Counted from the first letter of the stretch, positions 3,086-58,574 are shown. The stretch is 64,000 nucleotides of DNA from Acidimicrobiia bacterium (GCA_036556665.1 DATBIX010000029.1:6429-70428), one strand, 5' to 3'. The notes: generated by a model from the letters alone, not told the origin. Program-made: numbers and translations.

Positions 3086-3553
3086 ATGAGCTCGACACTC
3101 CAGCACGATTCCCCGAGCCCACTGGTCAGGGCCAACCACCGCCGACGCGCTCTCCATGAGGCGATGACCCGGCTCGAGGGGGCAATCGCCCGGCCGGTCG
3201 CCTCCGATGACTGGCTCGCCGAGGTCGATAGCGGGATGAAGGCGGTCACCAACGGTCTGCAGGCGCACATCCAGGAGGTCGAGGGGCCCGAAGGCATCAT
3301 CGCCGACATCGTGGACGTCGCCCCACGTCTCAGCGCGGCTGCCACCGAGCTGGCCAACGAGCACCACGGGATAACCGCGGCGATGCGCCGAGCCGAAACG
3401 GCCCTCGAGGCCGCCCGCCGTGGGGGTGCGACCGAGAAGACGCTGCTCCGCCGCCGGGTCACCACCCTGCTCGGACGGCTCACCATTCATCGACAGCACG
3501 GCTCCGACCTGGTGTACGACGCCTACAACATCGACATCGAGGCGGGTGACTGA
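3086..3553 (+). CDS. hemerythrin-like four-helix protein
   Basis: ATG 3086 in ORF 2738..3553; LHEAM, AHIQEVE, LANEHHG, IHRQHGSD His/Glu pattern. Confidence 0.6.
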   Translation: MSSTLQHDSPSPLVRANHRRRALHEAMTRLEGAIARPVASDDWLAEVDSGMKAVTNGLQAHIQEVEGPEGIIADIVDVAPRLSAAATELANEHHGITAAMRRAETALEAARRGGATEKTLLRRRVTTLLGRLTIHRQHGSDLVYDAYNIDIEAGD

Positions 3554-6441
3554 CCTCCTGGGGCACGGCGATCGTCCCCCGACCAGACTGAGGCCTCGCC
3601 TTCGGTGCCCAGTCGCCGGGCGATCAGCTTCCGCAGCTCGGCTGCCCAGAGCACAAGGCTCGCCAGCGCGATGCAAATCGACCAGTCACGCGGTCCGAGC
3701 GGGACAGTGCCGAAGGCCTGATTGAGCCACGGGGCTTGGACCACCGCGACCTGAAGGAGCCCCGACAAGGCAACCGCACCCCAAAGCCACCCATTCGTGA
3801 ACAGGCTCCTGAAGGCGCTGCTTCGATCCGATCGTGCGTTGAAGCAATTGAACAGTTGGGCAAAGACCAGGGTGGTGAAGGCCATCGTGCGCGCCTCGTC
3901 GATCGTGCCGGTTCCCTCGAAGAGCCCACCGGGGAGCCCAAGGTCGAGGGCGGTCAACGTGACCACCGCCATCACCAACCCGACCCAGATGATCCCGATC
4001 CACATCTCCTTGTCGATGACCCGCTCGGTGAGATGCCGGGGTGGCCGGAGCATCACGTCGTGGGGGGGCGGCTCGACGCCCATGGCAAGTGCGGGCCCTG
4101 TGTCGGTGAGCAGGTTGATCCACAGGATCTGGGTGGCGAGAAGCGGCACGGCCACCGCCCCTCCCGCCTGTTCCAGCCCGATCACCCCGGCCAGGACCAC
4201 CCCGAGGAACATGGTCAAGACTTCCCCGGTGTTGGACGACAGGAGGAAGCGAAGGAACTTCCGGATATTGGCGAAGATGCCCCTCCCCTCGCGCACGGCA
4301 GCGATGATCGTGGCGAAGTTGTCGTCGGCCAAGACCATGTCAGAGGCCTCTTTGGTCACGTCTGTGCCGGTGAGGCCCATGGCCACGCCGATGTCGGCTG
4401 CTTTCAGCGCAGGGGCATCGTTCACCCCGTCACCGGTCATGGCGACGATGTTGCCCTCGGCCTGAAGTGCCCTGACGATCCGCAGCTTGTGCTCGGGAGC
4501 GACTCGGGCGAAAACGGTGGCACTCCTCACCACCGCACTCAGCCCATCGTCGTCCATCTCCTCCAGCTCGGAGCCGGTGACGACTGCCTCTTGCTCGGAA
4601 ATGCCCAGGTCCCCCGCGATCCGGGCCGCGGTGAGTGGGTGGTCGCCGGTGATCATCAGGATCCGGATCCTCGCCTCGAGGGCGTCGGCCACGGCGGCCC
4701 GCGCCTCGGGGCGGGGCGGATCGATGATCCCAACCGTTCCCAGGTAGATCATCTCCTGCTCCACGGCATCTTCGTCACTGCTGCTCGCCCCATCGGGGAG
4801 AGGGCGGTAGGCAACGGCCATGGTTCGCAGTGCCTGACCGGCGAGCCGGTCGACCGTGGCGAGTATCTGTCGGCGGCGCTCCTCGGTGAGCGCTCGCTTT
4901 TCGCCCGCCACCAGCTCCAGGGTGCATCGGGCGAGAAGGACGTCGGGCGCCCCTTTGGTGACCACGTCGACCTGACCGTCACGCTCGGCGTCGGCCTGCA
5001 GGGTGGTCATCAGCTTCCGCTCGGAGCTGAACGGGATCTCACCGACTCGCCGGAATCGGGCCTCGCGCGACGCGGTGAGCCCGAGTTTCGCCTCGGCGAC
5101 GAGGAAGGCGCCCTCGGTGGGATCGCCATGGATCACCCATTCACCGTTCTCCCGACGCAGGACCGCGTCGTTGGCCAGGCTGCCTCCCATCAAGACCAGG
5201 CCGACCTCCTCGAGGAGCGGCCCCTCAGGTATTGGCTCATCCCCCGCCAGCACCTCGCCCTCCGGCCGGTAGCCGGTGCCGGTCACGTCGACCTCCCCCG
5301 ACGGAGTCGCCACCTTCACGAGGGTCATCTCGCTTCGGGTCAGAGTGCCGGTCTTGTCCGAGCCCACCACCGAGGCCGAGCCGAGCGTCTCGACCGACGA
5401 CAGCTTCTTGACGATGGCGTTCTTGTGAGCCATGCGTTGCACGCCGAGGGCAAGCACAAGGGAGAGGACAGCGGGGAGACTCTCTGGCACCGCGGCCACC
5501 GCAAGGGACACCCCCACCAACAGCACCGCGACGAAGTCGGCGGGCTCCCGGATCTCGCTGCCGAGGAGGATCGTGCCCACGACCACCGCGGAGATGATGA
5601 TCACAGCGATCCCGAGGGCACGGCCGATGGCGTCTACCTCGCGCTGCAGTGGCGTGCGCGCCTCCTCGGTTGTATCGAGGAGCCGAGCGATGTTTCCCAT
5701 CTCACTGGCCATCCCGGTGGCCGTCACGATGGCGCGTCCCCGGCCTCTGGTCACAGCGGTGCCGTTGAACACCATGTTGGTCCGGTCGCCGAGAGAGGAG
5801 GGCTCGTCGAGAGGAGCCGTGCTCTTGCTGACCGGCTCACTCTCACCCGTCAGCGACGCCTCGGCCACCATCAGGGACGCCACGTCGAACACCCTCGCAT
5901 CTGCGCTGACCGCGTCACCCTCGGCGAGGAGCAGGACGTCTCCAGGCACGACTTCGACGGAAGGCACCTGCATCTCCTCGCCATCGCGCAGGACGGATGC
6001 AGATGTCGAAGCCATCTCCTGTAGCGCGGCCACCGCGCGCTCGGCGCGCGCCTCCTGAACGTACCCGAGGATGGCGTTGGCGATCACGATCACCAGGATC
6101 ACCAATGCCTCGAAGGGCACGTCCTCGGCTCCCTCGATGGCCCAGACCGCGAGAGACACCACGACTGCGGCCAGCAGGAGGTAGACCAGCGGGTCGGCGA
6201 GATGGGAGAGGAACTTGCGCCAGCGTGGGACCGGTGGCTCCGATTCGAGCCGGTTCGGCCCGAATCTCTCCAGACGGGCCGATGCGTCACCCGGCGTCAG
6301 GCCACGGCTGGTCTCACAACCCAGCCCTGAGGCCACCTCATCCGCCGAACGCAACCAGGGCTGATCGGGAAGGGCTGTCTCGACCGGGGTCTCGGGCACG
6401 TCGAAACGGTAGGCGACCAGGGTGGGTGTCTCGGGAGACAC
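3523..6441 (-). CDS. cation-translocating P-type ATPase, P2A (Ca2+/CtpF-like)
   Basis: TGES, DKTGTLT, KGAPD, GDGVND; TM4 VPESLP, TM5 SSNTGE, TM6 INLLTD. Confidence 0.92.
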   Translation of the reverse strand: MSPETPTLVAYRFDVPETPVETALPDQPWLRSADEVASGLGCETSRGLTPGDASARLERFGPNRLESEPPVPRWRKFLSHLADPLVYLLLAAVVVSLAVWAIEGAEDVPFEALVILVIVIANAILGYVQEARAERAVAALQEMASTSASVLRDGEEMQVPSVEVVPGDVLLLAEGDAVSADARVFDVASLMVAEASLTGESEPVSKSTAPLDEPSSLGDRTNMVFNGTAVTRGRGRAIVTATGMASEMGNIARLLDTTEEARTPLQREVDAIGRALGIAVIIISAVVVGTILLGSEIREPADFVAVLLVGVSLAVAAVPESLPAVLSLVLALGVQRMAHKNAIVKKLSSVETLGSASVVGSDKTGTLTRSEMTLVKVATPSGEVDVTGTGYRPEGEVLAGDEPIPEGPLLEEVGLVLMGGSLANDAVLRRENGEWVIHGDPTEGAFLVAEAKLGLTASREARFRRVGEIPFSSERKLMTTLQADAERDGQVDVVTKGAPDVLLARCTLELVAGEKRALTEERRRQILATVDRLAGQALRTMAVAYRPLPDGASSSDEDAVEQEMIYLGTVGIIDPPRPEARAAVADALEARIRILMITGDHPLTAARIAGDLGISEQEAVVTGSELEEMDDDGLSAVVRSATVFARVAPEHKLRIVRALQAEGNIVAMTGDGVNDAPALKAADIGVAMGLTGTDVTKEASDMVLADDNFATIIAAVREGRGIFANIRKFLRFLLSSNTGEVLTMFLGVVLAGVIGLEQAGGAVAVPLLATQILWINLLTDTGPALAMGVEPPPHDVMLRPPRHLTERVIDKEMWIGIIWVGLVMAVVTLTALDLGLPGGLFEGTGTIDEARTMAFTTLVFAQLFNCFNARSDRSSAFRSLFTNGWLWGAVALSGLLQVAVVQAPWLNQAFGTVPLGPRDWSICIALASLVLWAAELRKLIARRLGTEGEASVWSGDDRRAPGGQSPASMSML

Positions 6442-8628: not shown

Positions 8629-9624
8629 TTGGCCAGGAGCCAAGTCATCGAGTCTTCACCCCGGCCAGAGCCGACAAGCGAGAGCGCATTCGCCCTCGCC
8701 TCCACTCGTGTCCCCATCGCCGGTCGCCACGACACGGTGTCGGAGGTCCTCAGACGGCTCCGCGCCAATGGACGGCTCGAGACCATCGCCGACATCGCCG
8801 TGGTCGAAGACGGCCATCTGCTCGGGCTGGTCCCCATCGAGGATCTCCTCGCCGCTCCAGACGACGCGGTCGCCGCCACGCTGATGGATCCCGACCCGCC
8901 CCTGGTTCGGCCCGGTGTCGACCAGGAGGTGGCGGCCACCAAGGCGGTCACACGCGGTGAGAGCAGTCTGGCCGTGGTCGACGAGGACGGCCTCTTTCTC
9001 GGCCTGATCCCTCCGCATCGGATGCTCAGCGTCCTGCTGGAGGAGCATCGGGAGGACCTGGCTCGTCTCAGCGGGTACCTGCATCAGAGCGAGTCGGCGC
9101 GGTCAGCCAGCGAAGAAGGTGTCGCCCTTCGCCTTTGGCACAGGTTCCCCTGGCTGGTGGTAGGGCTGGCTTCGGCGATGGCGGCAGCCGTCATCGTCTC
9201 GGGCTTCGAACAGGGCCTCGCCTCCCACATCGAGCTGGTGTTCTTCATCCCGGGAATCGTCTACATCGCCGATGCGGTGGGAACGCAGACAGAGGTCCTG
9301 GTGGTGCGAGGGCTGTCCGTCGGCGTCTCGGTCCGCAGGATCGTCGGCAGGGAGCTTGCCACCGGATTGGCGCTCGGGCTCATCCTCGGCATCCTCGCCT
9401 TTCCCGCAGTGCTCTACTGGGTCGACCGGCCGGTGGCGTTGACGGTGTCGACCAGCATTTGGGCCGCATCGACCGTGGCGACCCTCGTCGCCATGGCCCT
9501 CCCCTGGCTGCTATCACGGGCCGGGTTGGACCCGGCTTTTGGGAGCGGGCCGCTGGCGACGGTGATCCAGGACCTGCTCTCCCTGGCCATCTACTTCGCC
9601 TTTGCCGGCCTGTTCGTGCTCTGA
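8629..9624 (+). CDS. mgtE: magnesium transporter MgtE-like (CBS pair + TM domain, no MgtE N-terminal domain)
   Basis: CBS repeats ([25 protein letters not shown]), [25 protein letters not shown]; start uncertain. Confidence 0.85.
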
Positions 9625-11740: not shown

Positions 11741-13129
11741 GTGACCGTGCAGAGTCACACGAAGAGGCGAGCCCTGGGGCCTTGGTTGGCGACCGCCCTG
11801 GTCGTGGGCAACATGATCGGGTCGGGCGTCTTCCTTCTCCCCGCCGCGCTCGCCGAATACGGTGGTATCAGCCTCATCGGATGGCTGTTCACCGGTGCCG
11901 GAGCCGTGCTCCTGGCAATCGTCTTCGCCCGGCTGGGCCGGGCCTACCCGCGGACCGGCGGCCCCTATGAGTACAGCCGACGGGCCTTCGGGGAGTTCGT
12001 CGGGTTCCAGACGGCCTGGGGCTACTGGATCGCGATCTGGGCCGGGAACGCAGCCATCGCCGTGGCTTTCGTCGGCTACCTGGCAGTGTTCTGGGAGGGC
12101 TTGGCGGACAACGCCCTGCTCGCCGCGTTGGTGGCGGTTGGGGCCATCTGGCTGCTGACCTGGGTCAATGCCCTCGGGGTGAAGCAGGGCGGATGGGTCC
12201 AGGGGATCACGACGGTCTTGAAGGTCCTGCCCCTGCTCGCCATGGCGACAATCGGGCTCTTCTTCATGGACACCGCCAACTTCACCCCGTTCAACCTGAG
12301 CGGCGGCTCGGCTTTCGCCGCGGTGACTGCGGTGGCAGCCTTGACTCTCTGGGCATTCATCGGACTGGAGTCGGCCACTGTGCCGGCTGAAGACGTGCTC
12401 GATCCTGAGCGCAACATTCCGAGAGCGACCATCTGGGGGACGGTCGGCACGACGCTGATCTACATCCTCAGCACGGTTGCGGTGCTCGGGATCATCCCGG
12501 CGGCGACCCTTGTCAACTCGACGGCTCCTTTCGCCGATGCAGCGGAGTCTGCCTTTGGCGGCTGGGCGGGGACCCTGGTGGCGATCGGTGCCATCATCGC
12601 CACGTTCGGTGCGCTGAACGGCTGGATCCTGTTGCAGGCCCAGATCCCGATGGCGGCGGCTCGTGATCGGCTCTTTCCGAGCAGGTTTGGTCGCACCAAT
12701 CGAGCCGGCGCACCGGTGTTCGGGCTGGTGGTCTCCAGCGCCCTCGTGACGCTGCTGATGCTGGCCAACTACACCAAGGGGCTCGTCGAGCTGTTCACCT
12801 ACATGCTGCTCCTGGCAACGCTGACCACGCTGATCCCCTATGCCTATTCGGCGGCCGCCCAGCTGATGCTGTTCGTCACGGATCGGGAGAAGTTCTCCGG
12901 GATGCGCCTGGCCAAGGACTCCGTGATCGCCTCACTGGCGTTCGCCTACTCGGTTTGGGCCATCTACGGGGCGGGCCAGGAGGTTGTGTTCTACGGGCTG
13001 CTCCTCTTGCTTGCAGGGATCCCCATGTACGTGTGGGTGAAGTGGAGGAACAGGGTCCACGACGAGAAGCTGCCCGACGGGATCGTCATCCCCGACTCCC
13101 CTGCAGCGCTCTTCGACGGTTCGATCTGA
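11741..13129 (+). CDS. APC family basic amino acid antiporter (AdiC/ArcD-like)
   Basis: NMIGSGVFLLP, LWAFIGLESA, about 12 TM segments. Confidence 0.88.
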   Translation: MTVQSHTKRRALGPWLATALVVGNMIGSGVFLLPAALAEYGGISLIGWLFTGAGAVLLAIVFARLGRAYPRTGGPYEYSRRAFGEFVGFQTAWGYWIAIWAGNAAIAVAFVGYLAVFWEGLADNALLAALVAVGAIWLLTWVNALGVKQGGWVQGITTVLKVLPLLAMATIGLFFMDTANFTPFNLSGGSAFAAVTAVAALTLWAFIGLESATVPAEDVLDPERNIPRATIWGTVGTTLIYILSTVAVLGIIPAATLVNSTAPFADAAESAFGGWAGTLVAIGAIIATFGALNGWILLQAQIPMAAARDRLFPSRFGRTNRAGAPVFGLVVSSALVTLLMLANYTKGLVELFTYMLLLATLTTLIPYAYSAAAQLMLFVTDREKFSGMRLAKDSVIASLAFAYSVWAIYGAGQEVVFYGLLLLLAGIPMYVWVKWRNRVHDEKLPDGIVIPDSPAALFDGSI

Positions 13130-13140
13130 GAGGAGGAGAC

Positions 13141-14502
13141 ATGAAGAAGATCGTGATCATGGGAGCAGGGGGAAGGGACTTCCATGACTTCAACGTCGTT
13201 TATCGGGACGATCCCGACACACGTGTCATCGCGTTCACCGCAGCCCAGATCCCTGGCATTGCGGGTCGGGTGTACCCGCCCGCCCTGGCCGGCCCCCTCT
13301 ATCCCGAGGGGATACCGATCATGGACGAAGCCGACCTGGCCGATCTGATCGCGCGGGAGAAGGTGGATCAGGTGGTCTTCGCCTACAGCGACCTCTCCCA
13401 CGTCGAGGTGATGCACAAGGCCTCCCTGGCGCTGGCCCAGGGCGCAGACTTCGCCATGATCGGGCCGGCCCGGACCATGCTCTCCAGCACCAAGCCGGTC
13501 GTCGCCGTTTGCGCCGCCCGCACGGGTTGCGGGAAGAGCCAGACCAGCCGGTGGATCGGCAAGATCCTGACCGAGGCAGGCCTCGACGTCTCATTGATCC
13601 GCCACCCGATGCCCTACGGCAATCTGGAGCGGATGATGGTGCAGCGTTTCGAGACGATCGAGGACATCGATGCCTCGGACCCGACTATCGAGGAGCGTGA
13701 GGAGTACGAGGAGCCGGTGAGGGCAGGCCTCCTGATGTGGGCCGGAGTCGACTATGCCGAGATCCTGCACCGGGCCGAAGAGGAGTCCGACGTGATCGTC
13801 TGGGACGGCGGGAACAACGACTTCCCCTTCTATCGCCCGGATCTCTTCGTCACGGTGGTGGACCCCCTCCGGCCGGGTCACGAGCTGGAATACCACCCGG
13901 GCGAGATCAACGTGCGGATGGCGGACGTTGTCGTGATCAACAAGATCGACGTCTCCAACCCGCACGATGTGACGCTGGTCATGGAAAACGTCCGATCGGT
14001 CAACCCGAAGGCGACCATCGTCCAGACCGCCTCACCGGTTCGCCTGGAACCGGGACCCGAGTTGGCCGGGAAGAGGGTGCTGGTGGTGGAGGACGGCCCG
14101 ACCCTCACCCATGGCGGAATGCCTTTCGGGGCAGGGACAGTGGCCGCCCGTCACGCCGGGGTCGGAACCATCGTCGATCCGCGACCCCATGCCGTCGGCT
14201 CCATCGTCGACACGTTCTCCAGGTTCCCCATGCTGGGCCCCGTTCTCCCGGCAATGGGCTACGGCGAAGCGCAGCTTCAGGAGTTGGAGGCGACGATTCG
14301 CAACGTGCCGTGTGACGTCGTCGTGACCGGCACACCCATCGACCTGGGGCGGCTGATCGAGGCCGGGCACCCGGTGCGCCGGGCGGTCTACGAATCGGTG
14401 CAACTCGGTGAGCCGAGGCTCGAGGAGGTCCTGCGCGGTGTCATCGACGAGGCCTGGAATCGGAGGCAATCGACGGGCCCCTACGAGATAGCCGCCGGCT
14501 GA
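13141..14502 (+). CDS. cyclic 2,3-diphosphoglycerate synthetase-like P-loop enzyme; probable arginine synthetase (ArcE) homolog
   Basis: IMGAGGRDFHDFN, FTAAQIPGI, RTGCGKSQT, RHPMPYG, EEREEYE, WDGGNND, EDGPTLTHGGM; RBS AGGAGG. Confidence 0.8.
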   Translation: MKKIVIMGAGGRDFHDFNVVYRDDPDTRVIAFTAAQIPGIAGRVYPPALAGPLYPEGIPIMDEADLADLIAREKVDQVVFAYSDLSHVEVMHKASLALAQGADFAMIGPARTMLSSTKPVVAVCAARTGCGKSQTSRWIGKILTEAGLDVSLIRHPMPYGNLERMMVQRFETIEDIDASDPTIEEREEYEEPVRAGLLMWAGVDYAEILHRAEEESDVIVWDGGNNDFPFYRPDLFVTVVDPLRPGHELEYHPGEINVRMADVVVINKIDVSNPHDVTLVMENVRSVNPKATIVQTASPVRLEPGPELAGKRVLVVEDGPTLTHGGMPFGAGTVAARHAGVGTIVDPRPHAVGSIVDTFSRFPMLGPVLPAMGYGEAQLQELEATIRNVPCDVVVTGTPIDLGRLIEAGHPVRRAVYESVQLGEPRLEEVLRGVIDEAWNRRQSTGPYEIAAG

Positions 14503-14603: not shown

Positions 14604-15551
14604 ATGAGATACGGCACACGCACCCGTCGCTACGTCGTGTCCCTGGCGGCGATGTCTCTGATTCTCGCCGCCTGTGCCACCGAAGCAGGCGACGAATCCA
14701 CCACCAGCGAGGGTGCCACCAGCACCACCGCGGCGAGCACGACTACCGGCTCCGCCGAGACGTCGACCACGACAGTCCCATCAACGACGACCACCGCAAC
14801 GGAGACCTCCGGCTTTGTCGTCTACTTCATGCTCGAGGAGCTCGACGTGGACGACGGAACGCCGGGGCCATACCTGGTCCCGGTGTTTCGAGAGGCCCCT
14901 GAATCGGGCATCGAGGCAGAGACCGTGATGACGCTCCTGCTCGAAGGGCCCAATTCGGGTGAGACCTCCGGCGTCCCGCCGATCTCGACGGCTATCCCGG
15001 ACGGGACCTCGCTGCTCGGAGTGACGGTCGAATCCGGTCTGGCCACAGTCGATCTGAGTGGCGAGTACGACGACGGCGGAGGGAGCTTCGGCATGTTCGC
15101 CCGTCTCGCCCAGGTGGTCTACACCCTGACCCGCCTGCCCGATGTCGAGGAGGTTGCCTTCAGTGTCGATGGGACACCCGTTACCACGTTCTCGTCGGAG
15201 GGCATCGAGCTCGACGGGCCGCAGAGTCGGGAGGACTACTACGACCTGCTCCCGCCAGTCTTCGTCGACAGCCCGGCGTGGGGCCAGCCGGTCACCTCAC
15301 CAGTCTCGGTCTTCGGCCTTAGCAACGTCTTCGAGGCGGTGTCCCAGGTGATGCTGACCGACGATGACGGCCTGCCTCTCTTCGAGGATCACGTGATGGC
15401 AACGTGCGGCACCGGCTGCTGGGGCGAATGGTCTGTCGACATCACCTACGATGTCGACCGCGAACAGTTCGGGGCCCTGATCGTCTGGGAGATCTCGGCC
15501 AAGGACGGGAGCCAGGTCAACGTGCGCGAGTACCCGGTCATGCTCGGCTGA
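14604..15551 (+). CDS. GerMN-domain lipoprotein with C-terminal Ig-like (Gmad2-like) domain
   Basis: Lipobox ILAAC, Thr-rich linker, ATVDLSGEY...QVVYTLT GerMN motif, GLSNVFEA. Confidence 0.75.
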   Translation: MRYGTRTRRYVVSLAAMSLILAACATEAGDESTTSEGATSTTAASTTTGSAETSTTTVPSTTTTATETSGFVVYFMLEELDVDDGTPGPYLVPVFREAPESGIEAETVMTLLLEGPNSGETSGVPPISTAIPDGTSLLGVTVESGLATVDLSGEYDDGGGSFGMFARLAQVVYTLTRLPDVEEVAFSVDGTPVTTFSSEGIELDGPQSREDYYDLLPPVFVDSPAWGQPVTSPVSVFGLSNVFEAVSQVMLTDDDGLPLFEDHVMATCGTGCWGEWSVDITYDVDREQFGALIVWEISAKDGSQVNVREYPVMLG

Positions 15552-15570
15552 TACCGCCGACGCGCACAAA

Positions 15571-15584
15571 GGGCCGTTGGACTC
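15571..15584 (+). promoter_or_regulatory. DosR/DevR-like box upstream of hsp20
   Basis: GGGCC-GTTG-GACTC; CACCAT (15608-15613) 23 nt downstream. Confidence 0.5.
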
Positions 15585-15687
15585 TGGACGGGCACCGACC
15601 CGGGACGCACCATCGAATCAACAAGCCTCGGCCGCGTCGGGCCACGCCGGGTCAAAGGCATCAGGTCCGAGAGGGGAGGTGAACTGT

Positions 15688-16134
15688 ATGGAACTGAAGT
15701 TGTGGTCTCCGTTCCTCGATCTCGACAAGGAGTGGCGCTTCGACTTCCCGCGCCTCCTCGACTTCCCCATGCTGGGTCGTGAGTTGACCGGATTCGAATT
15801 CCGGCCGGCCATCGATCTGGTCAAGGAGGAGGGCGAGCTGGTGGCCACTATCGAGCTGCCCGGAATGGACCCGAAGGACATCGACGTCTCCATCGAGGGC
15901 GACTACCTGACCATCAAGGGCGAGAAGCACGAAGAGAAGGAGGTGTCCGAGGACGATCGCTACTTCCGTGAGCGGAGCTATGGCAAGTTCGAGCGGCGCT
16001 TCCGGCTCCCGGAAGGGACCAGCGCCGACAAGATGAGCGCGATGTACGACAAGGGCGTGCTCACACTGCATATCACGCTTCCGGAGGAGAAGCAGCTAGA
16101 GCCCCTCCACATCCCGATCGAGGCCAAGACCTGA
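15688..16134 (+). CDS. Hsp20/alpha-crystallin small heat shock protein
   Basis: ELPGMDPKDIDVSI, ERSYGKFERRFRLP, YDKGVLTLHI; RBS GGAGGT. Confidence 0.93.
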   Translation: MELKLWSPFLDLDKEWRFDFPRLLDFPMLGRELTGFEFRPAIDLVKEEGELVATIELPGMDPKDIDVSIEGDYLTIKGEKHEEKEVSEDDRYFRERSYGKFERRFRLPEGTSADKMSAMYDKGVLTLHITLPEEKQLEPLHIPIEAKT

Positions 16135-16149
16135 TCGACGATTTGCTCT

Positions 16150-16185
16150 GATGCGAGGAGATGAGAGTGCTCGTCTCCTCGCATC
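16150..16185 (+). terminator. 16-bp stem-loop after hsp20
   Basis: GATGCGAGGAGATGAG-AGTG-CTCGTCTCCTCGCATC; no U tract. Confidence 0.6.
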
Positions 16186-16221
16186 GCGTCTTCACCCCTG
16201 GCGCCCTCCTATGGTGTTGAG

Positions 16222-18984
16222 GTGCTCCCCGGGCCCTCACTGATGGTGCCGAGCCGGCAAGACCAGGCCGACGTAGCCGAGATGGCAACCGAGGAGGTCT
16301 ATCGGGCCCTCGGCACATCGCCGTCGGGTCTGACCCAGGAGGAGGCGGCCGAGCGGCTCGCCGTTCATGGCCCCAACACGATCAGCCCGATCTCACGGAG
16401 ACGCCTCGTATCGAGGCTCCTGTCGAACTTCGTGCACGTGATGGCGATTCTGCTTTGGGTTGGCGGCGCCGTTGCGTTTCTCGCCGATCTGCCGCAGCTC
16501 GGAGTGGCCATATGGGTGGTCAACGTGGTCAACGGCATCTTCAGCTTCTGGCAGGAGTTCAAGGCGGAAAAGGCGACGGAAGCCCTGCTCCGCCTTCTCC
16601 CCTCCACGGCCACGGTCCTTCGGGAAGCGGTGCTCGAGCAGGTGGATGCCACCGCACTCGTACCCGGCGACGTGGTCTTCATCGAAGAGGGTGACCGCAT
16701 CTCGGCCGACGGCCGGCTGGTGGAGCACGTGGCGCTGCGCGTCGACCAATCCACCCTCACCGGCGAGTCACGCTTGGTCCGCAAGGCCTCGGATCCGGTC
16801 GACACGGCAGGAAGGAGCCGCCTCGAGCTGCCCAATCTGGTGTTTGCCGGTACCACGGTGGGGTCGGGGCGGGGAAAGCTGGTCGTCACCTCGACCGGGG
16901 CCGGGACCGAGCTCGGCGGCATCGCCGCCCTGACCGGGTCACTGGCCGACACCCCCAGCCCCCTCCAGCGCGAGTTGAGGAGGGTCAGTCTCACTGTCAG
17001 CATCGTGGCGATCGGTGTCGGAGTGGTCTTCTTCATCCTGGCGCTCGCCCTGGGTGGTTTGCCCCTGGCCACCGGCTTCGTCTTCACCCTGGGGATGATC
17101 GTCGCCTTCGTCCCCGAGGGGCTCCTCCCCACCGTGACCCTCGCTCTCGCGATGGGCACCCAGAGAATGGCGGCACGCAACGCCTTGGTGAGGAAGCTGT
17201 CGGCGGTGGAGACCCTGGGGTGCACAACGGTGATTTGCACCGACAAGACCGGCACACTGACTCAGAACGAGATGACCGTCCGCTCGGCCCTCGTCGGCGG
17301 TCGGCGATATGAATTCGAGGGAGTCGGGTACCAGCCTGAGGGTCGGATCCATCCCGGGCCGGACGATGGCCTGGTCACACTTCTGGCCACCGCGGCTCGC
17401 GCCTCCAATGCGCGCCTGGTGCACAACGATGGAGACACCGGGAGACTGACCGTGGTCGGCGACCCGACCGAGGGCGCAATCCTCACCGCCGCAATGAAGG
17501 CGGGAATCGATCTCGACGTCCTGAGCTCGGATGCTCCCCGCGTCGCCGAATGGCCGTTCGACCCGGTTAGGAAGCGAATGAGCTCCGTGGCGCGCATGGG
17601 CGGGGAGTTGGTGGTCGCGACGAAGGGGGCTCCCGCCGAGCTCCTCGAGCGCTGCTCCTCACTCCATTCCGCCGATGGAACGCTGGCCCTCGAAGTGGAC
17701 GACCGAAAAGGGATCATCCAGGCGGTGAATGCGGCTGCGGCCGAGGGCCTGAGAGTCCTGGGGGTTGCACGTCGGGTGATCGACCATCTCCCCGATGAGC
17801 GCGAGGACTTCGAGATCGACCTCGAGTTCATCGGGCTGGTCGCCATGCACGACCCGCCGAGACCCGAGGTCGAGGCGGCCATCGCCAGTTGTAGGAGCGC
17901 GGGCATCCGGATCGTGATGATCACAGGGGACTATGGGATAACCGCTGAAGCGATCGGGCGCAGGATCGGCATGGTCGGTGAGGGCCAGGTGAGGGTGGTC
18001 AACGGCGACGAGATGGACGCCATCGATGACGCCGCCCTCGGCGCGATCCTGGACGATGAGGTGATCTTCGCCAGGGTGACCCCTTCTCACAAGATGCGGG
18101 TGGTCGCCGCTCTCCAGGATCGCGGTGCGGTGGTTGCGGTCACCGGGGACGGGGTCAACGATGCCCCGGCTCTCAAACTGGCCGACATCGGGGTCGCCAT
18201 GGGGCAGTCCGGCACCGACGTCGCCCGGGAGGCAGCCGACATCATCCTGCTCGACGACAACTTCGCATCGATAGTCGCCGCCATCGAGGAAGGGCGGGCC
18301 GTCTATGACAACATCAAGAAGTTCACGACCTACATCCTCACGTCCAACGTGCCCGAAGCCGTCCCGTTCGTGGTCTTCGCATTCTCCGGTGGGCGAATCC
18401 CGCTCGCATTGGGCGTGATGCACATCCTCGCCATCGACCTGGGCACCGACCTCGCCCCTGCCCTCGCCTTGGGGGCGGAGCCACCCGAGCCTGGTGTGAT
18501 GGACCGGCCACCCCGCTCGCTCGATGCCCGACTCATCGACCGGCCCCTACTTGCCCGCGCCTATCTCCTGCTCGGGCCGGTCCAGGCGCTCTTTGTCATG
18601 ATTGCCTTCTTCGGGGCCTACCGCCTGCAGGGTGTCGAGGACTGGTCCAACCTGGCCTCGTCGGGGACGATCTATCTCGCCGCCACGGCAATGGCGCTGG
18701 CAGGGGTGGTGACCACGCAAATCGGCAATCTCTTCGCCCAGCGATCGGCTCGGGTCTCGCTGCGCCGTATCGGTCTGGGAGGCAATCGCCTTCTCTGGTG
18801 GGGGATACTCTCCGAAGTGGTGGTCATTCTCCTCATCGTCTATCTGCCCCCGCTGCAGAGGGTCATCGGCACGGCTCCGTTCCCGCCGATCGGGTGGGCC
18901 TGGCTGCTTCTCGGAGTCCCCCTGCTGCCGCTGGCCGACGAAATCAGGAAAGCGCTCACCGCCCACCGGGGAAGAGCACGATGA
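16222..18984 (+). CDS. cation-translocating P-type ATPase, P2C (Na+/K+- or H+/K+-ATPase)-like
   Basis: TGES, DKTGTLT, GDGVND; IVAFVPEGLLPTVT, YILTSNVPEAVPF, ILAIDLGTD; start may be ATG 16243 or 16282. Confidence 0.88.
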   Translation: MLPGPSLMVPSRQDQADVAEMATEEVYRALGTSPSGLTQEEAAERLAVHGPNTISPISRRRLVSRLLSNFVHVMAILLWVGGAVAFLADLPQLGVAIWVVNVVNGIFSFWQEFKAEKATEALLRLLPSTATVLREAVLEQVDATALVPGDVVFIEEGDRISADGRLVEHVALRVDQSTLTGESRLVRKASDPVDTAGRSRLELPNLVFAGTTVGSGRGKLVVTSTGAGTELGGIAALTGSLADTPSPLQRELRRVSLTVSIVAIGVGVVFFILALALGGLPLATGFVFTLGMIVAFVPEGLLPTVTLALAMGTQRMAARNALVRKLSAVETLGCTTVICTDKTGTLTQNEMTVRSALVGGRRYEFEGVGYQPEGRIHPGPDDGLVTLLATAARASNARLVHNDGDTGRLTVVGDPTEGAILTAAMKAGIDLDVLSSDAPRVAEWPFDPVRKRMSSVARMGGELVVATKGAPAELLERCSSLHSADGTLALEVDDRKGIIQAVNAAAAEGLRVLGVARRVIDHLPDEREDFEIDLEFIGLVAMHDPPRPEVEAAIASCRSAGIRIVMITGDYGITAEAIGRRIGMVGEGQVRVVNGDEMDAIDDAALGAILDDEVIFARVTPSHKMRVVAALQDRGAVVAVTGDGVNDAPALKLADIGVAMGQSGTDVAREAADIILLDDNFASIVAAIEEGRAVYDNIKKFTTYILTSNVPEAVPFVVFAFSGGRIPLALGVMHILAIDLGTDLAPALALGAEPPEPGVMDRPPRSLDARLIDRPLLARAYLLLGPVQALFVMIAFFGAYRLQGVEDWSNLASSGTIYLAATAMALAGVVTTQIGNLFAQRSARVSLRRIGLGGNRLLWWGILSEVVVILLIVYLPPLQRVIGTAPFPPIGWAWLLLGVPLLPLADEIRKALTAHRGRAR

Positions 18985-19631
18985 GAGCCGTCGTCATCGG
19001 GTGCGGGAGAGTCGGCTCCGCCCTCGCCTACCTGCTCGAGATGAATGGCACCCAGGTCACCATCGTCGACCGCGACGCCAAGGCGCTCCAGAGGCTCGGT
19101 GAGGGGTTCCACGGCGAGATGCTCATCGGCGTGGGTCTCGACCAAGACCTACTGGAGAGAGCGGGGGTATCGAAGGCGGATGCCCTGGCGGCGGTCACCG
19201 GCAGCGACGAGACCAATGCCGTCCTGGCGCGGCTGGCCACACGCCGATTCCGCGTTCCGAGAGTGGTGGCGCGGATGTACGACCCGCGCCAGGCCGACCT
19301 CTACCGACGACTCGGGGTCATGACCATCTCGCCCGTCGAGTGGAGTGTCACCAAGTTCGGTCACCTGCTCAGCCTGCAAGATCTGGCTCCGATCAGTGCC
19401 ATCGGCGCAGGTCAGGTACAGGTCGTGGAGGCATCGGTGACGCCAGGGCTCGCCGGACGGGCGGCTGGAGAGCTGGAGGTCCCTGGGGAGACCAGGCTGA
19501 TCGCCCTGACCCGTGCCGGGCGGACCTTCCTCGGCGCCTCCAACGTGATCCTCGAGCCCGGCGACGTCGTCTCGATCGCTGTGACCTCGGGGTCCGAGAC
19601 GAGACTTCAGCAACTGCTGGGGCTCGGATGA
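18981..19631 (+). CDS. trkA: TrkA/RCK family NAD-binding potassium uptake regulatory protein
   Basis: VVIGCGRVG, AVTGSDETN, RCK_C; ATGA overlap with ATPase. Confidence 0.9.
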   Translation: MRAVVIGCGRVGSALAYLLEMNGTQVTIVDRDAKALQRLGEGFHGEMLIGVGLDQDLLERAGVSKADALAAVTGSDETNAVLARLATRRFRVPRVVARMYDPRQADLYRRLGVMTISPVEWSVTKFGHLLSLQDLAPISAIGAGQVQVVEASVTPGLAGRAAGELEVPGETRLIALTRAGRTFLGASNVILEPGDVVSIAVTSGSETRLQQLLGLG

Positions 19632-19641
19632 GGGAGGTCTG

Positions 19642-20328
19642 ATGTCCTCTGTGATCGTCATCGGCGGAGGGAAGGTCGGCTCATACCTGGCCCCGTTGCT
19701 CATGGAGGGTGGGCACTCGGTGACCGTCATCGAGCTGGTTGACGAGCGAGCCAGTGAAATCCGGGCGCGTCTCGACGGGGGCGTCGTCGTCGCCGGGTCG
19801 GGGACCGATGCGACCGTCCTGGAGAGGGCAGGAGTCAGAGGGTGTGACGTGGTCGCCGCCGTGACCGGGAACGATGAGACGAACCTCGTGGTCGCCTCCC
19901 TGGCGCGATTCGAGTTCGAGGTCCCCCGTGTCATCGCCCGAATCGACGATCCCTCCAATGCCTGGCTCTTTGCCCCCGACATGGGTGTCGACGTCGCCCT
20001 CAACCAGGCGGATCTACTCGCCCATCTCGTGGCAGAGGAGATGTCGATGGGCGAGATGACAACTCTCCTCAAGCTCCGGAAGGGCCAGTTCGCCCTCGTC
20101 GAGCAGAAGGTCGCTCCTGAAGCCTCGGTTGTCGGGCGCTCGATCGAAGAGATCGAATGGCCGGCTCGCTGTCAACTGGTGGCCGTGCTGCGGAAGGGAG
20201 ATCTCATCGCCCCCGAAGGAGAGATCGTGCTCCAGGCCGCAGATGAGGTGTTGGCGGTCGCACACTCCGACAGTGCGCCGATTCTGGAGGCGTTGCTCGA
20301 TCGGCCGCAACGGGGAGAGGCCGGCTGA
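19642..20328 (+). CDS. trkA: second TrkA/RCK family protein
   Basis: VIGGGKVG, AVTGNDETN, LFAPDMGVD, RCK_C. Confidence 0.9.
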   Translation: MSSVIVIGGGKVGSYLAPLLMEGGHSVTVIELVDERASEIRARLDGGVVVAGSGTDATVLERAGVRGCDVVAAVTGNDETNLVVASLARFEFEVPRVIARIDDPSNAWLFAPDMGVDVALNQADLLAHLVAEEMSMGEMTTLLKLRKGQFALVEQKVAPEASVVGRSIEEIEWPARCQLVAVLRKGDLIAPEGEIVLQAADEVLAVAHSDSAPILEALLDRPQRGEAG

Positions 20329-20437
20329 CCGCCACCACGGCCTCAGGCCGTCTCAATCGAATGATCACGCCCGGATAATCAGGTAGTCGCCGGGATCGGG
20401 GAGAATCCCACTATGTCCCGGCCGCCGGGCGGGGTTC

Positions 20438-20451
20438 GGGTCTTTCGGCTC
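20438..20451 (+). promoter_or_regulatory. DosR/DevR-like box (weaker) upstream of GT4 operon
   Basis: GGGTC-TTTC-GGCTC; GAGACT (20476-20481) 24 nt downstream. Confidence 0.4.
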
Positions 20452-20484
20452 TATGGCGGGAACGACTGGGCGAAGGAGACTCGA

Positions 20485-21672
20485 ATGAGAGAGCCAAGGA
20501 TTCGTCCCGTGATCGCAGACCTGACCTCGAGTCCCCGTCTGCTCTTCGTGAGCACCTACCCGCCAACGCGCTGTGGGATCGCCGGGTTCACCCAGTCGCT
20601 GATCGAGTCACTGGAGGAGATCAGGGGAGAGAGATCCGACAGCGGAGTGATCAGGCTTCGCCCCGGGTGGGACGACACCGTTCATACCCATCAGGAGGTC
20701 GTGGCCGAGGTCGACGTCGACTCGGCCGGATGGGCCACGCGTATCGCCACCTGGTGCAATGGCTTCGATCTGCTCTGGATCCAGCACGAGTTCGGCATTT
20801 TCGGCCCCGAGGACGGGATCGAGGTCCTCGAACTGAGCCGCCGGTCGCCGCTCCCCGTCGCCACGACGCTGCACACGGTGGTTGCGAAGCCGACAGATCG
20901 CCAGCGCCAGATCATCGAGAGTCTCGGGGTGTCCTCCGAATTGCTGGTCGTGATGTCGCAGCAAGCGGCGGAACGCCTGCTCGACGTCTATGACATCGAG
21001 CAAGGGAAGGTGCACGTCGTCCCTCACGGTGCCAAGCCGTCGCCGGCTCGCCTGTCCGCGGTCGAACCGGGCCGACGGCCCACCATCGTGAACTGGGGTC
21101 TGATCGGGCCAGGGAAGGGATTGGAGTGGGGCATCCAGGCGATGGCCCGACTGCGACACCTGGATCCTCGCCCTCGCCTCGTGATCAGAGGGACCACCCA
21201 CCCGAACGTGAAGAGGCGGGAGGGCGAGCTCTACCGCGAGCACCTGGTCGAGCTGGTCCACACCCTCGGTGTCGAGGACTCGGTTGTCATCGAAGACGGG
21301 TACATGTCCCCGGCTGAGCTCGATCGGCTCGTTCGCAACGCCGACCTCGCCCTCCTCCCCTACGACAATTCCGAGCAGGTCACGTCTGGAGTGCTGGTCG
21401 ATGCCATTGGGGCCGGTTTGCCGGTGGTGGCCACTCGGTTCCCCCACGCGGTCGAGGTGCTCGCAACCGGGGCCGGCCTGATCGTGTCGCAGGGTGACGA
21501 TGAAGCCATGGCGGCCGCAATCGAGCAGCTCCTCACCCGCCCGGCGTTGCTGAGGGGGGCCGCAGAGGAGGCTCGCAGGGTGGGACAGCGCTTCTCGTGG
21601 CCTCGTGTGGCCGCGGCCTATGAAAGGCTGGCACGCCTGGTGGTGACGCGGGACAAGACCAGCGTCGCCTGA
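20485..21672 (+). CDS. glycosyltransferase family 4 (mannosyltransferase-like)
   Basis: STYPPTRCGIAGFT, QHEFGIFG, WGLIGPGKGLE, SEQVTSGVL; start ATG 20485 or GTG 20509. Confidence 0.9.
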   Translation: MREPRIRPVIADLTSSPRLLFVSTYPPTRCGIAGFTQSLIESLEEIRGERSDSGVIRLRPGWDDTVHTHQEVVAEVDVDSAGWATRIATWCNGFDLLWIQHEFGIFGPEDGIEVLELSRRSPLPVATTLHTVVAKPTDRQRQIIESLGVSSELLVVMSQQAAERLLDVYDIEQGKVHVVPHGAKPSPARLSAVEPGRRPTIVNWGLIGPGKGLEWGIQAMARLRHLDPRPRLVIRGTTHPNVKRREGELYREHLVELVHTLGVEDSVVIEDGYMSPAELDRLVRNADLALLPYDNSEQVTSGVLVDAIGAGLPVVATRFPHAVEVLATGAGLIVSQGDDEAMAAAIEQLLTRPALLRGAAEEARRVGQRFSWPRVAAAYERLARLVVTRDKTSVA

Positions 21673-21673
21673 G

Positions 21674-22741
21674 ATGGAGCAGCTGCTGCCGGAGCCGAGG
21701 ATCGACCATCTGGCCCGGCTCAGTGACGACATCGGGATCTTCGAGCACGCCTCCGGCCTCGAACCGCGGCGAGAGCTCGGCTACACCACCGAGGATGCGG
21801 CCCGTGCCTTGATCGTTACGGTCAGGTGGCAGCCCCAAACCGAAATGACCATGGCGCTGACACGCACCTACCTCGCCTTCGTGGCGGGATCGATTGTCGA
21901 GGGTGGGCCGATTCGGAATCGCATGACAACGGCGGGGGAATGGGTGGGACCTCCCTCGGCCGACGCTCATGGGCGCACCATCTGGGGATTGTGCGTGGCC
22001 GCGGCCGAATCCGCGGCCAACGAAACGGTCGAGGCGGCACTTTCCTGCCTGGAGCGGATCGGCGTCGTCGACGACCCGTCGATCCGCCCGTGGGTCTACA
22101 CCGGGATCGGCGTTGCCGAGCTGCTCTCTGCCCTGCCCGGCCATGGTTGGGCACGCCTCATCGCCAACCAGGTGCTCGGGCGCCTGCCCGGGCCCAGCGG
22201 TTCCGGGTGGATCTGGCCCGAGCCGCGGCTCACCTATGACAACGCCCGGTTGACCCAGTGCCTCCTCGACCTGGGTCGGGTGTTGGACCACCCGGAAGCG
22301 ATGGAGGACGGGCTCCGTCTGCTCGGCTGGCTTGTGACGTTGGAGCGCAACGGTGACCACTTCTCGTTCACCCCGGTCGGAGGCAGGGGCCCGGAGGACA
22401 CGTCACCCGCCTTCGACCAACAGCCCCTCGAGGCGAGTGCGATGGCTGATGCGTGCGTCGCAGCCTGGGAGGTCGATGGCGACGAGCGGTGGCTCGAACT
22501 CGCCTACCAGGCCGCACAGTGGTTCACGGGACGCAACGATGGGGCCGTCTCACTTTACGACCCGCAGACCGGGGCGGGGCATGACGGGCTCACCGAGGGG
22601 GGCGTCAACGCCAACGCGGGAGCAGAGTCCACCATCTCGGCCCTCGCAGCACTGCAACGTGGCAGACTCATCGAGCCCCACCGAGCTTCGGGCTGGAAGA
22701 AGACCATGCCGGTGGAGACTCTCCCGGCGGCACGAGCCTGA
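21674..22741 (+). CDS. six-hairpin glycosidase-like protein (partner of GT4)
   Basis: GYTTEDAARAL, YDNARL, FDQQPLEA, HDGL, NAGAESTIS motifs seen in GT4-associated (alpha/alpha)6 proteins. Confidence 0.7.
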   Translation: MEQLLPEPRIDHLARLSDDIGIFEHASGLEPRRELGYTTEDAARALIVTVRWQPQTEMTMALTRTYLAFVAGSIVEGGPIRNRMTTAGEWVGPPSADAHGRTIWGLCVAAAESAANETVEAALSCLERIGVVDDPSIRPWVYTGIGVAELLSALPGHGWARLIANQVLGRLPGPSGSGWIWPEPRLTYDNARLTQCLLDLGRVLDHPEAMEDGLRLLGWLVTLERNGDHFSFTPVGGRGPEDTSPAFDQQPLEASAMADACVAAWEVDGDERWLELAYQAAQWFTGRNDGAVSLYDPQTGAGHDGLTEGGVNANAGAESTISALAALQRGRLIEPHRASGWKKTMPVETLPAARA

Positions 22742-22742
22742 C

Positions 22743-23687
22743 ATGACACAAGCGAGAAGCCAGCAACTATTCACCCGACACGAGGGCAACCCGATTCTCA
22801 CCGCCCTCGACTGGCCCTACACGGTCAACGCGGTGTTCAACCCCGGGGCCACCACCGGGCCCGATGGCGACACCATCCTCCTCGTCAGGGTCGAGGACCG
22901 GGCCGGTCTGTCCCATCTCACCGTTGCCCGCAGTCGGGATGGCCTGAACGACTGGAAGATCGACACCCAACCCTCATTCGCCCCGCAGACCTCGACATAC
23001 GCCGAATGTTGGGGGGTCGAGGACCCCCGGATCACCAAGGTCGGTGATGAGTACCTCATCGCCCACACTGCGGTCTCGCGGAGCGGGCCGCTGGTCTCCC
23101 TGGTGTCGACCACCGACTTCGTCGACTTCACACGCCGCGCCATCGTGTCGCCCCCCGAGAACAAAGACGCGGCCTTGTTCCCCGTCAAATTCGACGACCG
23201 CTACGCCATGATCCACCGGCCGGTCTACTTCGCCGACGGCGGCGCCGCCCACATGTGGATCTCCTACAGCCCCGACCTCAGGCATTGGGGCGACCATCGG
23301 ATCCTCATGGAGAGCCGTAGGTCTGGTTACTGGGATCGCGACAAGGTGGGTCTCGGTCCGCCCCCGCTTCGGACCGACCAGGGATGGCTGATCATGTTCC
23401 ACGGGGTGAGGGACACTGCCGCGGGAGCGCTCTATCGGGCCGGGCTGGCCGTGCTCGACCTCGAGGAGCCGACCACGGTGTTGGCTCGAGCCGACGAGTG
23501 GGTGCTGGGGCCGGAGGTTGAGTACGAGCGAATGGGTGACGTGCCCGGTGTGGTGTTTCCCTGCGGTTGGATCGCCGACGACGACGGCATGCTTCGCCTC
23601 TACTACGGAGCGGCAGACACGTGTGTGGCCGTGGCCACGGCGCGTATCGACGATCTGGTCGCCTTCGCCTTCTCGCACACGATCTAG
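22743..23687 (+). CDS. GH130 family glycoside phosphorylase/glycosidase
   Basis: NAVFNPGA, GVEDPRIT, NKDAALFP, MIHRP, PGVVFPCG, YYGAADTC. Confidence 0.9.
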   Translation: MTQARSQQLFTRHEGNPILTALDWPYTVNAVFNPGATTGPDGDTILLVRVEDRAGLSHLTVARSRDGLNDWKIDTQPSFAPQTSTYAECWGVEDPRITKVGDEYLIAHTAVSRSGPLVSLVSTTDFVDFTRRAIVSPPENKDAALFPVKFDDRYAMIHRPVYFADGGAAHMWISYSPDLRHWGDHRILMESRRSGYWDRDKVGLGPPPLRTDQGWLIMFHGVRDTAAGALYRAGLAVLDLEEPTTVLARADEWVLGPEVEYERMGDVPGVVFPCGWIADDDGMLRLYYGAADTCVAVATARIDDLVAFAFSHTI

Positions 23688-58520: not shown

Positions 58521-58530
58521 CTCGCCTCTC

Positions 58531-58547
58531 TTGCGAACCAGTCGCAA
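58531..58547. promoter_or_regulatory. Nur-box-like palindrome upstream of nikM
   Basis: TTGCGA-ACCAG-TCGCAA, 11-27 nt before the ATG. Confidence 0.6.
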
Positions 58548-58574
58548 CAAGCCTAGCAAGGCGACAGGATGCGC

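Follow-up and report, generated by a model that had tools for sequence, protein, structure and literature searches.

What is a bacterial ATPase akin to the animal sodium pump doing directly upstream of two TrkA proteins? The question is raised by positions 16222-20328 (+ strand) of a 64,000-nucleotide (nt) stretch of Acidimicrobiia bacterium DNA (GCA_036556665.1 DATBIX010000029.1:6429-70428; 66% G+C for the genome, which is of soil or rhizosphere origin), here called the window, in which all positions are counted. Three consecutive genes lie there, encoding a P2-type cation ATPase (the pump) and two half-size TrkA proteins, TrkA1 and TrkA2. A first-pass annotation had read them as a Na,K-ATPase-like P2C pump translationally coupled to two RCK/TrkA proteins, in a window without TrkH. 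Comparative genomics now strongly supports a functional tie between the pump and the two RCK proteins rather than TrkH. We consider it fairly probable, judging from the sequences, that the triad forms one operon in which a P2C-like pump is made with its own cytoplasmic two-subunit RCK regulator, TrkA1/TrkA2. The unit is laid out as follows:

16222-18984, + strand: P2-type cation ATPase gene, 920 amino acids (aa) counted from GTG (Pfam domain set)
18981-18984, + strand: ATGA junction of pump and TrkA1 (sequence reading)
18981-19631, + strand: TrkA1, half-size TrkA, 216 aa (Pfam and PDB matches)
19632-19641, + strand: spacer of 10 nt, with a GGGAGG Shine-Dalgarno sequence at 19632-19637 (sequence reading)
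19642-20328, + strand: TrkA2, second half-size TrkA, 228 aa (Pfam and PDB matches)

The ATG of TrkA1 (18981-18983) shares bases with the TGA of the pump (18982-18984), and because start and stop codons overlap in this ATGA, the arrangement implies translational coupling of the two genes. The overlap and the second trkA gene behind it are as the first-pass annotation described them. It had extended the coupling to both trkA genes, which holds for TrkA1 and less well for TrkA2, whose gene begins at 19642 after a spacer carrying a Shine-Dalgarno sequence. The start of the pump gene is ambiguous, GTG 16222, ATG 16243 and ATG 16282 all being possible; homologues align only from about residue 15-25, and residues 1-14 of the structural model have a pLDDT below 50.

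Conservation of the gene order

A search with the pump against one genome per species (GTDB collection) returned 80 loci, with pump identities of 52-73%. By record titles these belong to Chloroflexota (37), Desulfobacterota ('Deltaproteobacteria', 18), Methanomicrobiales and related archaea (11), Actinomycetota/Acidimicrobiia (9), Deinococcota (Meiothermus, 2), Gemmatimonadota (1), Methylomirabilota (1) and a Pseudomonadota metagenome-assembled genome (1). The archaeal carriers of the pump family include Methanospirillum, Methanoregula and other Methanomicrobiales, and cultured carriers of the triad include Roseiflexus sp. RS-1, Meiothermus hypogaeus, Pelolinea submarina, Ornatilinea apprima and Methanospirillum purgamenti. 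Two contigs end at the last codons of the pump, leaving 78 informative loci. As far as the contigs run, a TrkA1 and then a TrkA2 orthologue follow directly 3' of the pump on the same strand in 77 of these 78, and the order is conserved over at least six bacterial phyla plus Methanomicrobiales. The junction between pump and TrkA1 is a 4-nt ATGA overlap in 44 of the 73 loci where it could be measured; in 5 others a single nt is shared, most of the remainder being separated by less than 60 nt; the spacer between TrkA1 and TrkA2 has a median of 13 nt in related loci. In the Pseudomonadota genome (locus L035:10754-12453) the triad is intact with junctions widened to 814 and 236 nt, apparently non-coding.

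The association was equally evident from the other end. An independent metagenome collection was searched with an alignment of TrkA2 orthologues, and the 80 best TrkA2 relatives were kept. TrkA1 stands upstream of TrkA2 in 59/60 loci whose flank is long enough; for the pump, where the contig allows, the figure is 51/53. Of the exceptions, L107 has TrkA2 by itself and L119 has a permease in front of the pair. The co-occurrence check proposed in the first-pass annotation is thus borne out in both directions, with more than 130 triads recovered in all. Clustering of open reading frames (ORFs) within about 8 kb of the forward loci yielded no recurrent proteins other than those of the triad, apart from antisense shadow ORFs. 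Pump-RCK fusion proteins were absent among the top 120 relatives of TrkA1 and the top 120 relatives of the pump, and an apparent TrkA1-TrkA2 gene fusion in Pelolinea submarina (L046) was ruled out on translation by a stop codon between the genes.

Orthologues of TrkA1 and of TrkA2 are 40-68% identical across phyla, compared with about 30-37% between the TrkA1 and TrkA2 paralogues. As orthologues are closer than paralogues, we conclude that the duplication and the triad predate the spread of the unit. The distance matrix of the pump is correlated with that of each regulator (r = 0.82 for TrkA1 and 0.50 for TrkA2; Mantel p = 0.001), which fits co-inheritance and co-transfer as one unit and is in itself no proof of contact.

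The statement that the window holds no TrkH/KtrB gene is in line with the searches for TrkH. No match to TrkH (PF02386) was found among the ten multi-transmembrane ORFs of the window scanned in Pfam, which are MgtE, amino-acid permease, EamA, ABC-transporter permease (BPD_transp_1), MFS, AI-2E, CbiM, CbiQ, Amt and RnfD-like proteins, and E. coli TrkH (phmmer) matched none of the six frames. Across 1.66 Mb of sequence (161 loci with 6-10 kb flanks, plus the window) the same query had no match at E <= 10, in a search with a single E. coli TrkH sequence that distant KtrB proteins could escape.

Ion sites and family placement of the pump

The pump carries the catalytic motifs TGES (aa 180-183), DKTGTLT (341-347) and TGDGVNDAP (641-649), all invariant or nearly so in an 83-row ATPase alignment, 78 rows of which are members of the pump family. 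Its Pfam domains are Cation_ATPase_N, E1-E2_ATPase, Cation_ATPase, HAD and Cation_ATPase_C. An AlphaFold model built from 55 family sequences (pLDDT 81.8, pTM 0.73) has ten transmembrane (TM) helices. Because motifs, domains and the ten-TM model all fit, the pump can be assigned to the type 2 P-type ATPases. The first-pass annotation had gone further, matching its TM4, TM5 and TM6 motifs to those of the animal Na,K-ATPase, and the membrane segments concerned are these:

17098-17124, + strand: TM4 motif IVAFVPEGL, aa 293-301 (alignment to Na,K- and H,K-ATPases)
18331-18450, + strand: TM5 motif YILTSNVPE, aa 704-712, and TM6 motif ILAIDLGTD, aa 735-743 (phmmer and column counts)
18712-18816, + strand: TM8 motif TTQIGN and TM9 motif SE (alignment to non-gastric H,K-ATPase and column counts)

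All three motifs are present and align with Na,K- and non-gastric H,K-ATPase. TM4 pairs residue for residue with IVANVPEGL of Na,K-ATPase (shark, human alpha-4 and alpha-3, with non-gastric H,K-ATPase also aligned); TM5 and TM6 align with YTLTSNIAE and ILFIDLGTD of non-gastric H,K-ATPase, and Na,K-ATPase chains score nearly as high there. The motifs were also said to lie closer to Na,K-ATPase than those of the window's second P-type ATPase, and this was confirmed: that protein (3523-6441, - strand, 972 aa) has the SERCA/PMR1-type motifs VAAVPESLP, LLSSNTGE and WINLLTD. It scores 672 bits on the IIA2 model (below cut-off) and 450 on the IIC model, and is probably the organism's Ca2+ pump.

The ligands of K+ sites I and II, E327, S775, N776, E779, D804 and D808 in Na,K-ATPase numbering, correspond to E299, S708, N709, E712, D739 and D743 of the pump, and each is kept in 78-83 of the 83 rows. 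Equivalents of Y771, T774, P778 and Q923 are almost invariant among the 78 family rows. In TM8, the pump sequence vvttQIgNL lies opposite imiqQIaDL of non-gastric H,K-ATPase, so that Q833 corresponds to Q923 (Gln in 80/83 rows) and N836 occupies the D926 position, where Asn is found in 81/83 rows. The Na+ site III set (Y771, T774, Q923, D926, E954) is thus incomplete. In the sodium pump the third, Na+-specific site needs D926 as a ligand, and replacing it by Asn impairs Na+ binding. Glu865 in TM9, which we take to be the counterpart of E954, is Glu in 78/83 rows and stands opposite Gln in the alignment with non-gastric H,K-ATPase. A second family-wide departure from the sodium pump is found at N324, which is F296 here and Phe in 78/83 rows. 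In gastric H,K-ATPase a Tyr at this place (Tyr340, Asn in the sodium pump) reshapes the K+ sites by its bulk (PMC8481561). With Phe for N324 and Asn for D926, a faithful 3Na+/2K+ cycle is doubtful: from its sequence, the pump would have two K+-type sites and probably no canonical third Na+ site. Nor does it follow the P2A pattern (N..GE in TM5, N..TD in TM6, Glu in TM8), having N.PE, D..TD and a TM8 Asn.

Relatives of known structure point the same way as the ion sites. In a sequence search of the PDB the best matches were Na,K-ATPase alpha subunits (E 6e-146), followed in order by non-gastric H,K-ATPase, SPCA1 (5e-141), gastric H,K-ATPase, Listeria LMCA1 and SERCA; identity to the animal Na,K- and H,K-ATPases is 31-34%. 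When residues 699-920 were compared on their own (phmmer), non-gastric H,K-ATPase scored 5e-22 and Na,K-ATPase about 1e-20, against about 3e-11 for SERCA and 7e-11 for SPCA, and the P2C signal lies mainly in the ion-binding membrane half. The top 27 Foldseek matches of the model in the PDB were all Na,K- or H,K-ATPases (TM-score 0.62-0.80), the best scores (0.76-0.80) being obtained against E2-type states. The two TrkA genes are the only recurring neighbours of the pump, with no beta or FXYD gene recurring nearby, though a beta-like protein might be encoded elsewhere, and the TM7-TM8 loop is predicted to have only about 13 residues. The corresponding loop of the animal pump, which binds the obligatory single-pass beta subunit, is far longer.

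The RCK pair and explanations of the linkage

Both TrkA proteins match TrkA_N in Pfam (89.6 and 91.8 bits); TrkA_C reaches 44.6 bits in TrkA2 and 24.9 bits in TrkA1, just under the cut-off of 27. In the PDB, TrkA1 is closest to Vibrio parahaemolyticus TrkA (4J9U, 1e-31) and then to Thermotoga TM1088A/B, and TrkA2 to the same TrkA structure (4e-32) and to TM1088B (2e-23); KtrA is far more distant from both. The nucleotide motifs are intact: G7-C-G-R-x-G12 (G7/G9/G12) and D30 are invariant in 69 TrkA1 orthologues, as are GGGxxG (G8-G10/G13) and E31 in 65 TrkA2 orthologues. With a Rossmann GxGxxG, an acidic ribose ligand and a TrkA_C lobe, TrkA1 and TrkA2 are classified as TrkA-type RCK proteins, and given the invariance of these residues both Rossmann sites should bind nucleotide. 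The PRK09496-series TrkA equivalogs, which describe two tandem RCK units, give 117 and 143 bits and are not reached (cut-off 293). Each protein aligns to both halves of TrkA, and so the two half-size proteins together amount to one TrkA. The block NQADL..L.AEEMSLG.M.TLLKL of TrkA2 (aa 121-146, at the end of the N-lobe and in the linker) is at least 90% conserved in the TrkA2 alignment; as a speculation, it is a candidate contact surface. In L016, L037, L045 and L059 the TrkA2 match covers the first 110-135 residues only or is split between two frames, which may reflect frameshifts in the assemblies or genuine proteins with an N-lobe alone, such as Thermotoga TM1088A.

How might such a pair act on a pump? 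TrkA shuts TrkH when it binds ADP and opens it when it binds ATP (PMC6987127). Judging from TrkA and TM1088A/B, TrkA1 and TrkA2 probably form a ring of four plus four subunits, and we see an evenly balanced case for direct control of the primary pump, in which this nucleotide-sensing hetero-oligomeric ring docks on the ATPase and licenses its catalytic cycle. One operon with translational coupling would supply pump and TrkA1/TrkA2 assembly in matching amounts. The pump would spend ATP on K+ import through its two conserved K+ sites, presumably against Na+ or H+, a canonical 3Na+/2K+ cycle being unlikely since the third-site carboxylate D926 is Asn family-wide. The RCK assembly would load nucleotides at its two intact Rossmann sites, the likely ligands being ATP/ADP, as in TrkA, with NAD(H) or cyclic di-AMP (c-di-AMP) possible. 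The last of these is an alternative because taxa carrying the triad are reported to make c-di-AMP and because it is bound by TrkA-type proteins from Streptococcus and Haloferax (PMC12453120; PMC12699388). The liganded assembly would then dock on the cytoplasmic face of the pump and switch its cycle on or off, which would limit the use of ATP for K+ uptake to times of need. Of the RCK-regulated K+ exchange pump that the first-pass annotation proposed, then, the functional tie between pump and RCK proteins is upheld by comparative genomics, and the fidelity of the exchange to the sodium pump is what N324F and D926N call into question.

Several observations speak against direct control, and they have to be set beside the possibility that TrkA1 and TrkA2 gate another K+ transporter, one whose gene lies elsewhere (TrkH/KtrB or an APC-type permease), and share an operon with the pump for the sake of K+ homeostasis, without contact. 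To our knowledge, every characterised TrkA-type protein partners a TrkH/KtrB-type or CPA2-type protein, and the membrane partner of characterised TrkA is separate and possibly far away, as in E. coli, where the neighbours of trkH are yigZ and hemG rather than trkA. The sole informative exception of the forward search, L064:4765-7680 (Methylomirabilota), has a family pump (55% identical) with no TrkA within 8 kb downstream, the genes there sitting on the opposite strand. Conversely, in L119:14-2487 (Ga0268298_10041033) a TrkA1/TrkA2-type pair directly follows a multi-TM permease and not a P-type ATPase, which means that its tie to the ATPase is not absolute. That pair is 43% and 57% identical to the window pair; the permease is represented by its C-terminal part, with several TM segments and a cytoplasmic tail, and a piece 75% identical to it lies downstream of TrkA2 in L158:2253-2585. 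We take the L119 layout to resemble the mycobacterial permease-ceoB-ceoC arrangement. Split TrkA pairs are suggested by this to serve several membrane partners other than TrkH, and the mycobacterial 'Trk' is described as two TrkA proteins (PMC13163235). Moreover, shared descent alone also produces a correlation of distance matrices. Against a transporter elsewhere stands a linkage that is near-exclusive both ways (77/78 and 51/53) and that outlasted transfer between bacterial phyla and into archaea with differing other transporters. The prevailing 4-nt start/stop overlap is typical of stoichiometric co-production of partners, and the E. coli TrkH query found no relative beside any of the 161 loci. 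We therefore judge co-regulation without contact to be unlikely, and hold it no lower than that because of L119, L158 and L064 and because these genomes may carry a TrkH at some other place.

A different reading concerns the transported ion: the ATPase could be a P2A-type Ca2+ (or Mn2+/Mg2+) pump and the RCK pair divalent-cation or nucleotide sensors, K+ being uninvolved. The highest full-length NCBIfam score of the pump is indeed that of TIGR01522 (IIA2, PMR1-type; 566 bits, cut-off 798), slightly above TIGR01106 (IIC; 560 bits, cut-off 946.1), and in the PDB search SPCA1 comes close behind the leading matches. Public annotation names the pump a Ca2+ or Mg2+ ATPase ('calcium-translocating', 'magnesium-transporting'), and some RCK domains, such as that of MthK, bind Ca2+. 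Yet the pump reaches the cut-off of no NCBIfam P2 subfamily model, that of PMR1 included. TM5, TM6 and TM8 show the P2C pattern (TSN.PE, IDLGTD, TQIGN), unlike the SERCA/SPCA pattern of the ATPase at 3523-6441; the C-terminal part prefers P2C pumps (5e-22) to SERCA and SPCA (about 1e-11); the 27 leading structural matches are all P2C; and the RCK pair is of the nucleotide-binding TrkA type with invariant GxGxxG. A divalent-cation pump is on these grounds improbable. The P2C label of the first-pass annotation can be kept in part: it fits the pump by ion-site signature, best solved-structure matches and fold, and not by the full-length family score. Finally, that the three genes are neighbours by chance, or by a lineage-specific accident without function, is refuted: among species-level genomes that cover six or more phyla and one archaeal order, 77 of 78 repeat the order and junction, and the reverse search has the pump in 51/53 loci. 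We give this reading practically no weight. A pump with its own RCK regulator is the explanation that we prefer.

Surroundings of the triad and relation to known systems

Upstream of the triad one structural element stands out:

16149-16186, + strand: 17-bp perfect G+C-rich hairpin between the hsp20 stop codon and the pump gene (RNA folding)

The hairpin folds at -44.1 kcal/mol (z = -4.4; equalled by none of 200 shuffles) and has no T-tract. It is probably the terminator of hsp20 (15577-16134), and as such would mark the upstream edge of the triad's transcription unit. No consensus promoter or terminator was detected when 15400-20700 was scanned, and no RNA family, riboswitches included, reached its Rfam gathering score in the whole window. 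Two soil metatranscriptomes gave scattered low-depth contigs only, one of which crosses the TrkA1/TrkA2 junction (19616-19865), DNA carry-over being possible; for the Roseiflexus runs that cover the triad fully the library type is not on record, and their reads resemble DNA.

Farther upstream, 14604-15551 encodes a protein of the Germane/Gmad2 ('spore germination') type, whose N-terminus is predicted to hold a TM segment. The gene is also found upstream in two Acidimicrobiia loci (L001:449-1255; L004:6632-7519) and is absent elsewhere, which amounts to lineage-level synteny only. Directly 3' of the triad, 20413-23687 holds a GT4-type glycosyltransferase gene, an unassigned 355-aa ORF and a GH130 mannoside phosphorylase-like gene; none of the three is kept beside the triad in other loci. 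Behind the triad of Roseiflexus sp. RS-1 (L161:14404-18843, CP000686) come genes for a PAS histidine kinase, a response regulator and a hybrid kinase, which could reflect local regulation and are not recurrent neighbours. Elsewhere in the window, the ORF of a 12-TM amino-acid permease (11741-13129) shares 175 nt with the one behind it (12955-14502, 515 aa, only a weak CobW match); either this second ORF really starts further downstream, or the two are related parts of a single locus. Other ion and metal transport genes are an MgtE-like gene with CBS domains (8629-9624), a CbiM/CbiQ cobalt ECF module (56764-58559) and the gene of an Amt ammonium channel (62257-63606).

The link between pump and regulators is masked by current annotation, which labels the pump a Ca2+/Mg2+ ATPase and its partners Trk uptake proteins. 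With the alpha subunits of animal Na,K- and H,K-ATPase the pump shares the ten-helix P2 fold, and these are its closest sequence and structure matches; common to both are also all ligating side chains of K+ sites I and II, Y771, T774, Q923 and presumably E954, as well as the TM5 Pro and the TM6 Asp-x-x-Thr-Asp. It differs in being only 31-34% identical to them and below the IIC cut-off, in lacking a recurrent beta or FXYD gene beside it, in its short TM7-TM8 loop and, compared with Na,K-ATPase, in having Asn at D926 and Phe at N324, the latter aromatic like Tyr340 of gastric H,K-ATPase. We know of no P2C pump accompanied by two RCK genes. Prokaryotic Na+/K+-ATPase-like P2C pumps are known from phylogenomics in methanogenic archaea and some bacteria, their function being an open enigma (Palmgren, JBC 2023 review, PMC10654040). 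The present family resembles these pumps of Palmgren's in its sodium-pump-like ion sites and methanogen carriers, the two sets being compared through the review's description, and differs in that all three Na+ sites are conserved in the review and D926 is Asn here; TrkA and RCK go unmentioned there (PMC10654040). The conserved RCK linkage makes the role of prokaryotic P2C pumps, the question that this review leaves open, experimentally approachable.

On the regulator side, TrkA1 and TrkA2 resemble the TrkA-type RCK proteins of TrkAH and KtrAB in combining TrkA_N and TrkA_C with intact nucleotide motifs; the membrane gene coupled to the present pair, in contrast, encodes a P-type ATPase and not a channel-like TrkH or KtrB. 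A regulator split over two genes is also seen in Thermotoga TM1088A/B, whose products were crystallised together (3L4B), and in mycobacteria, where we take the split pair to be CeoB/CeoC. For the mycobacterial Trk, PMC13163235 speaks of 'two TrkA proteins', a split regulator like that of the triad. KdpFABC is likewise an ATP-driven K+ system that unites a P-type ATPase with a module from the K+ channel/Trk world, but Kdp joins the membrane partner KdpA to the P1A ATPase KdpB, whereas the triad has soluble RCK proteins and P2C-type sites. According to published descriptions, KefC, KhtTU, CpaA, MthK and Kch resemble the triad in that a cytoplasmic RCK assembly with a nucleotide or ion controls a cation transporter; the known RCK targets, however, are channels or secondary transporters and not primary pumps. 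Full-text searches of the literature, with subscription papers mostly outside their scope, returned no report of an RCK/TrkA partner of a P-type ATPase. If our interpretation is true, the triad would be the first RCK-regulated P-type ATPase and would extend RCK control from channels, Trk/Ktr and Kef-type antiporters to primary pumps, and the prokaryotic relatives of the Na+,K+-ATPase would gain a role in regulated ATP-driven K+ uptake, with a soluble regulator in place of a beta subunit. Altogether, the modules of the triad are familiar ones, and their combination is new and evidently ancient.

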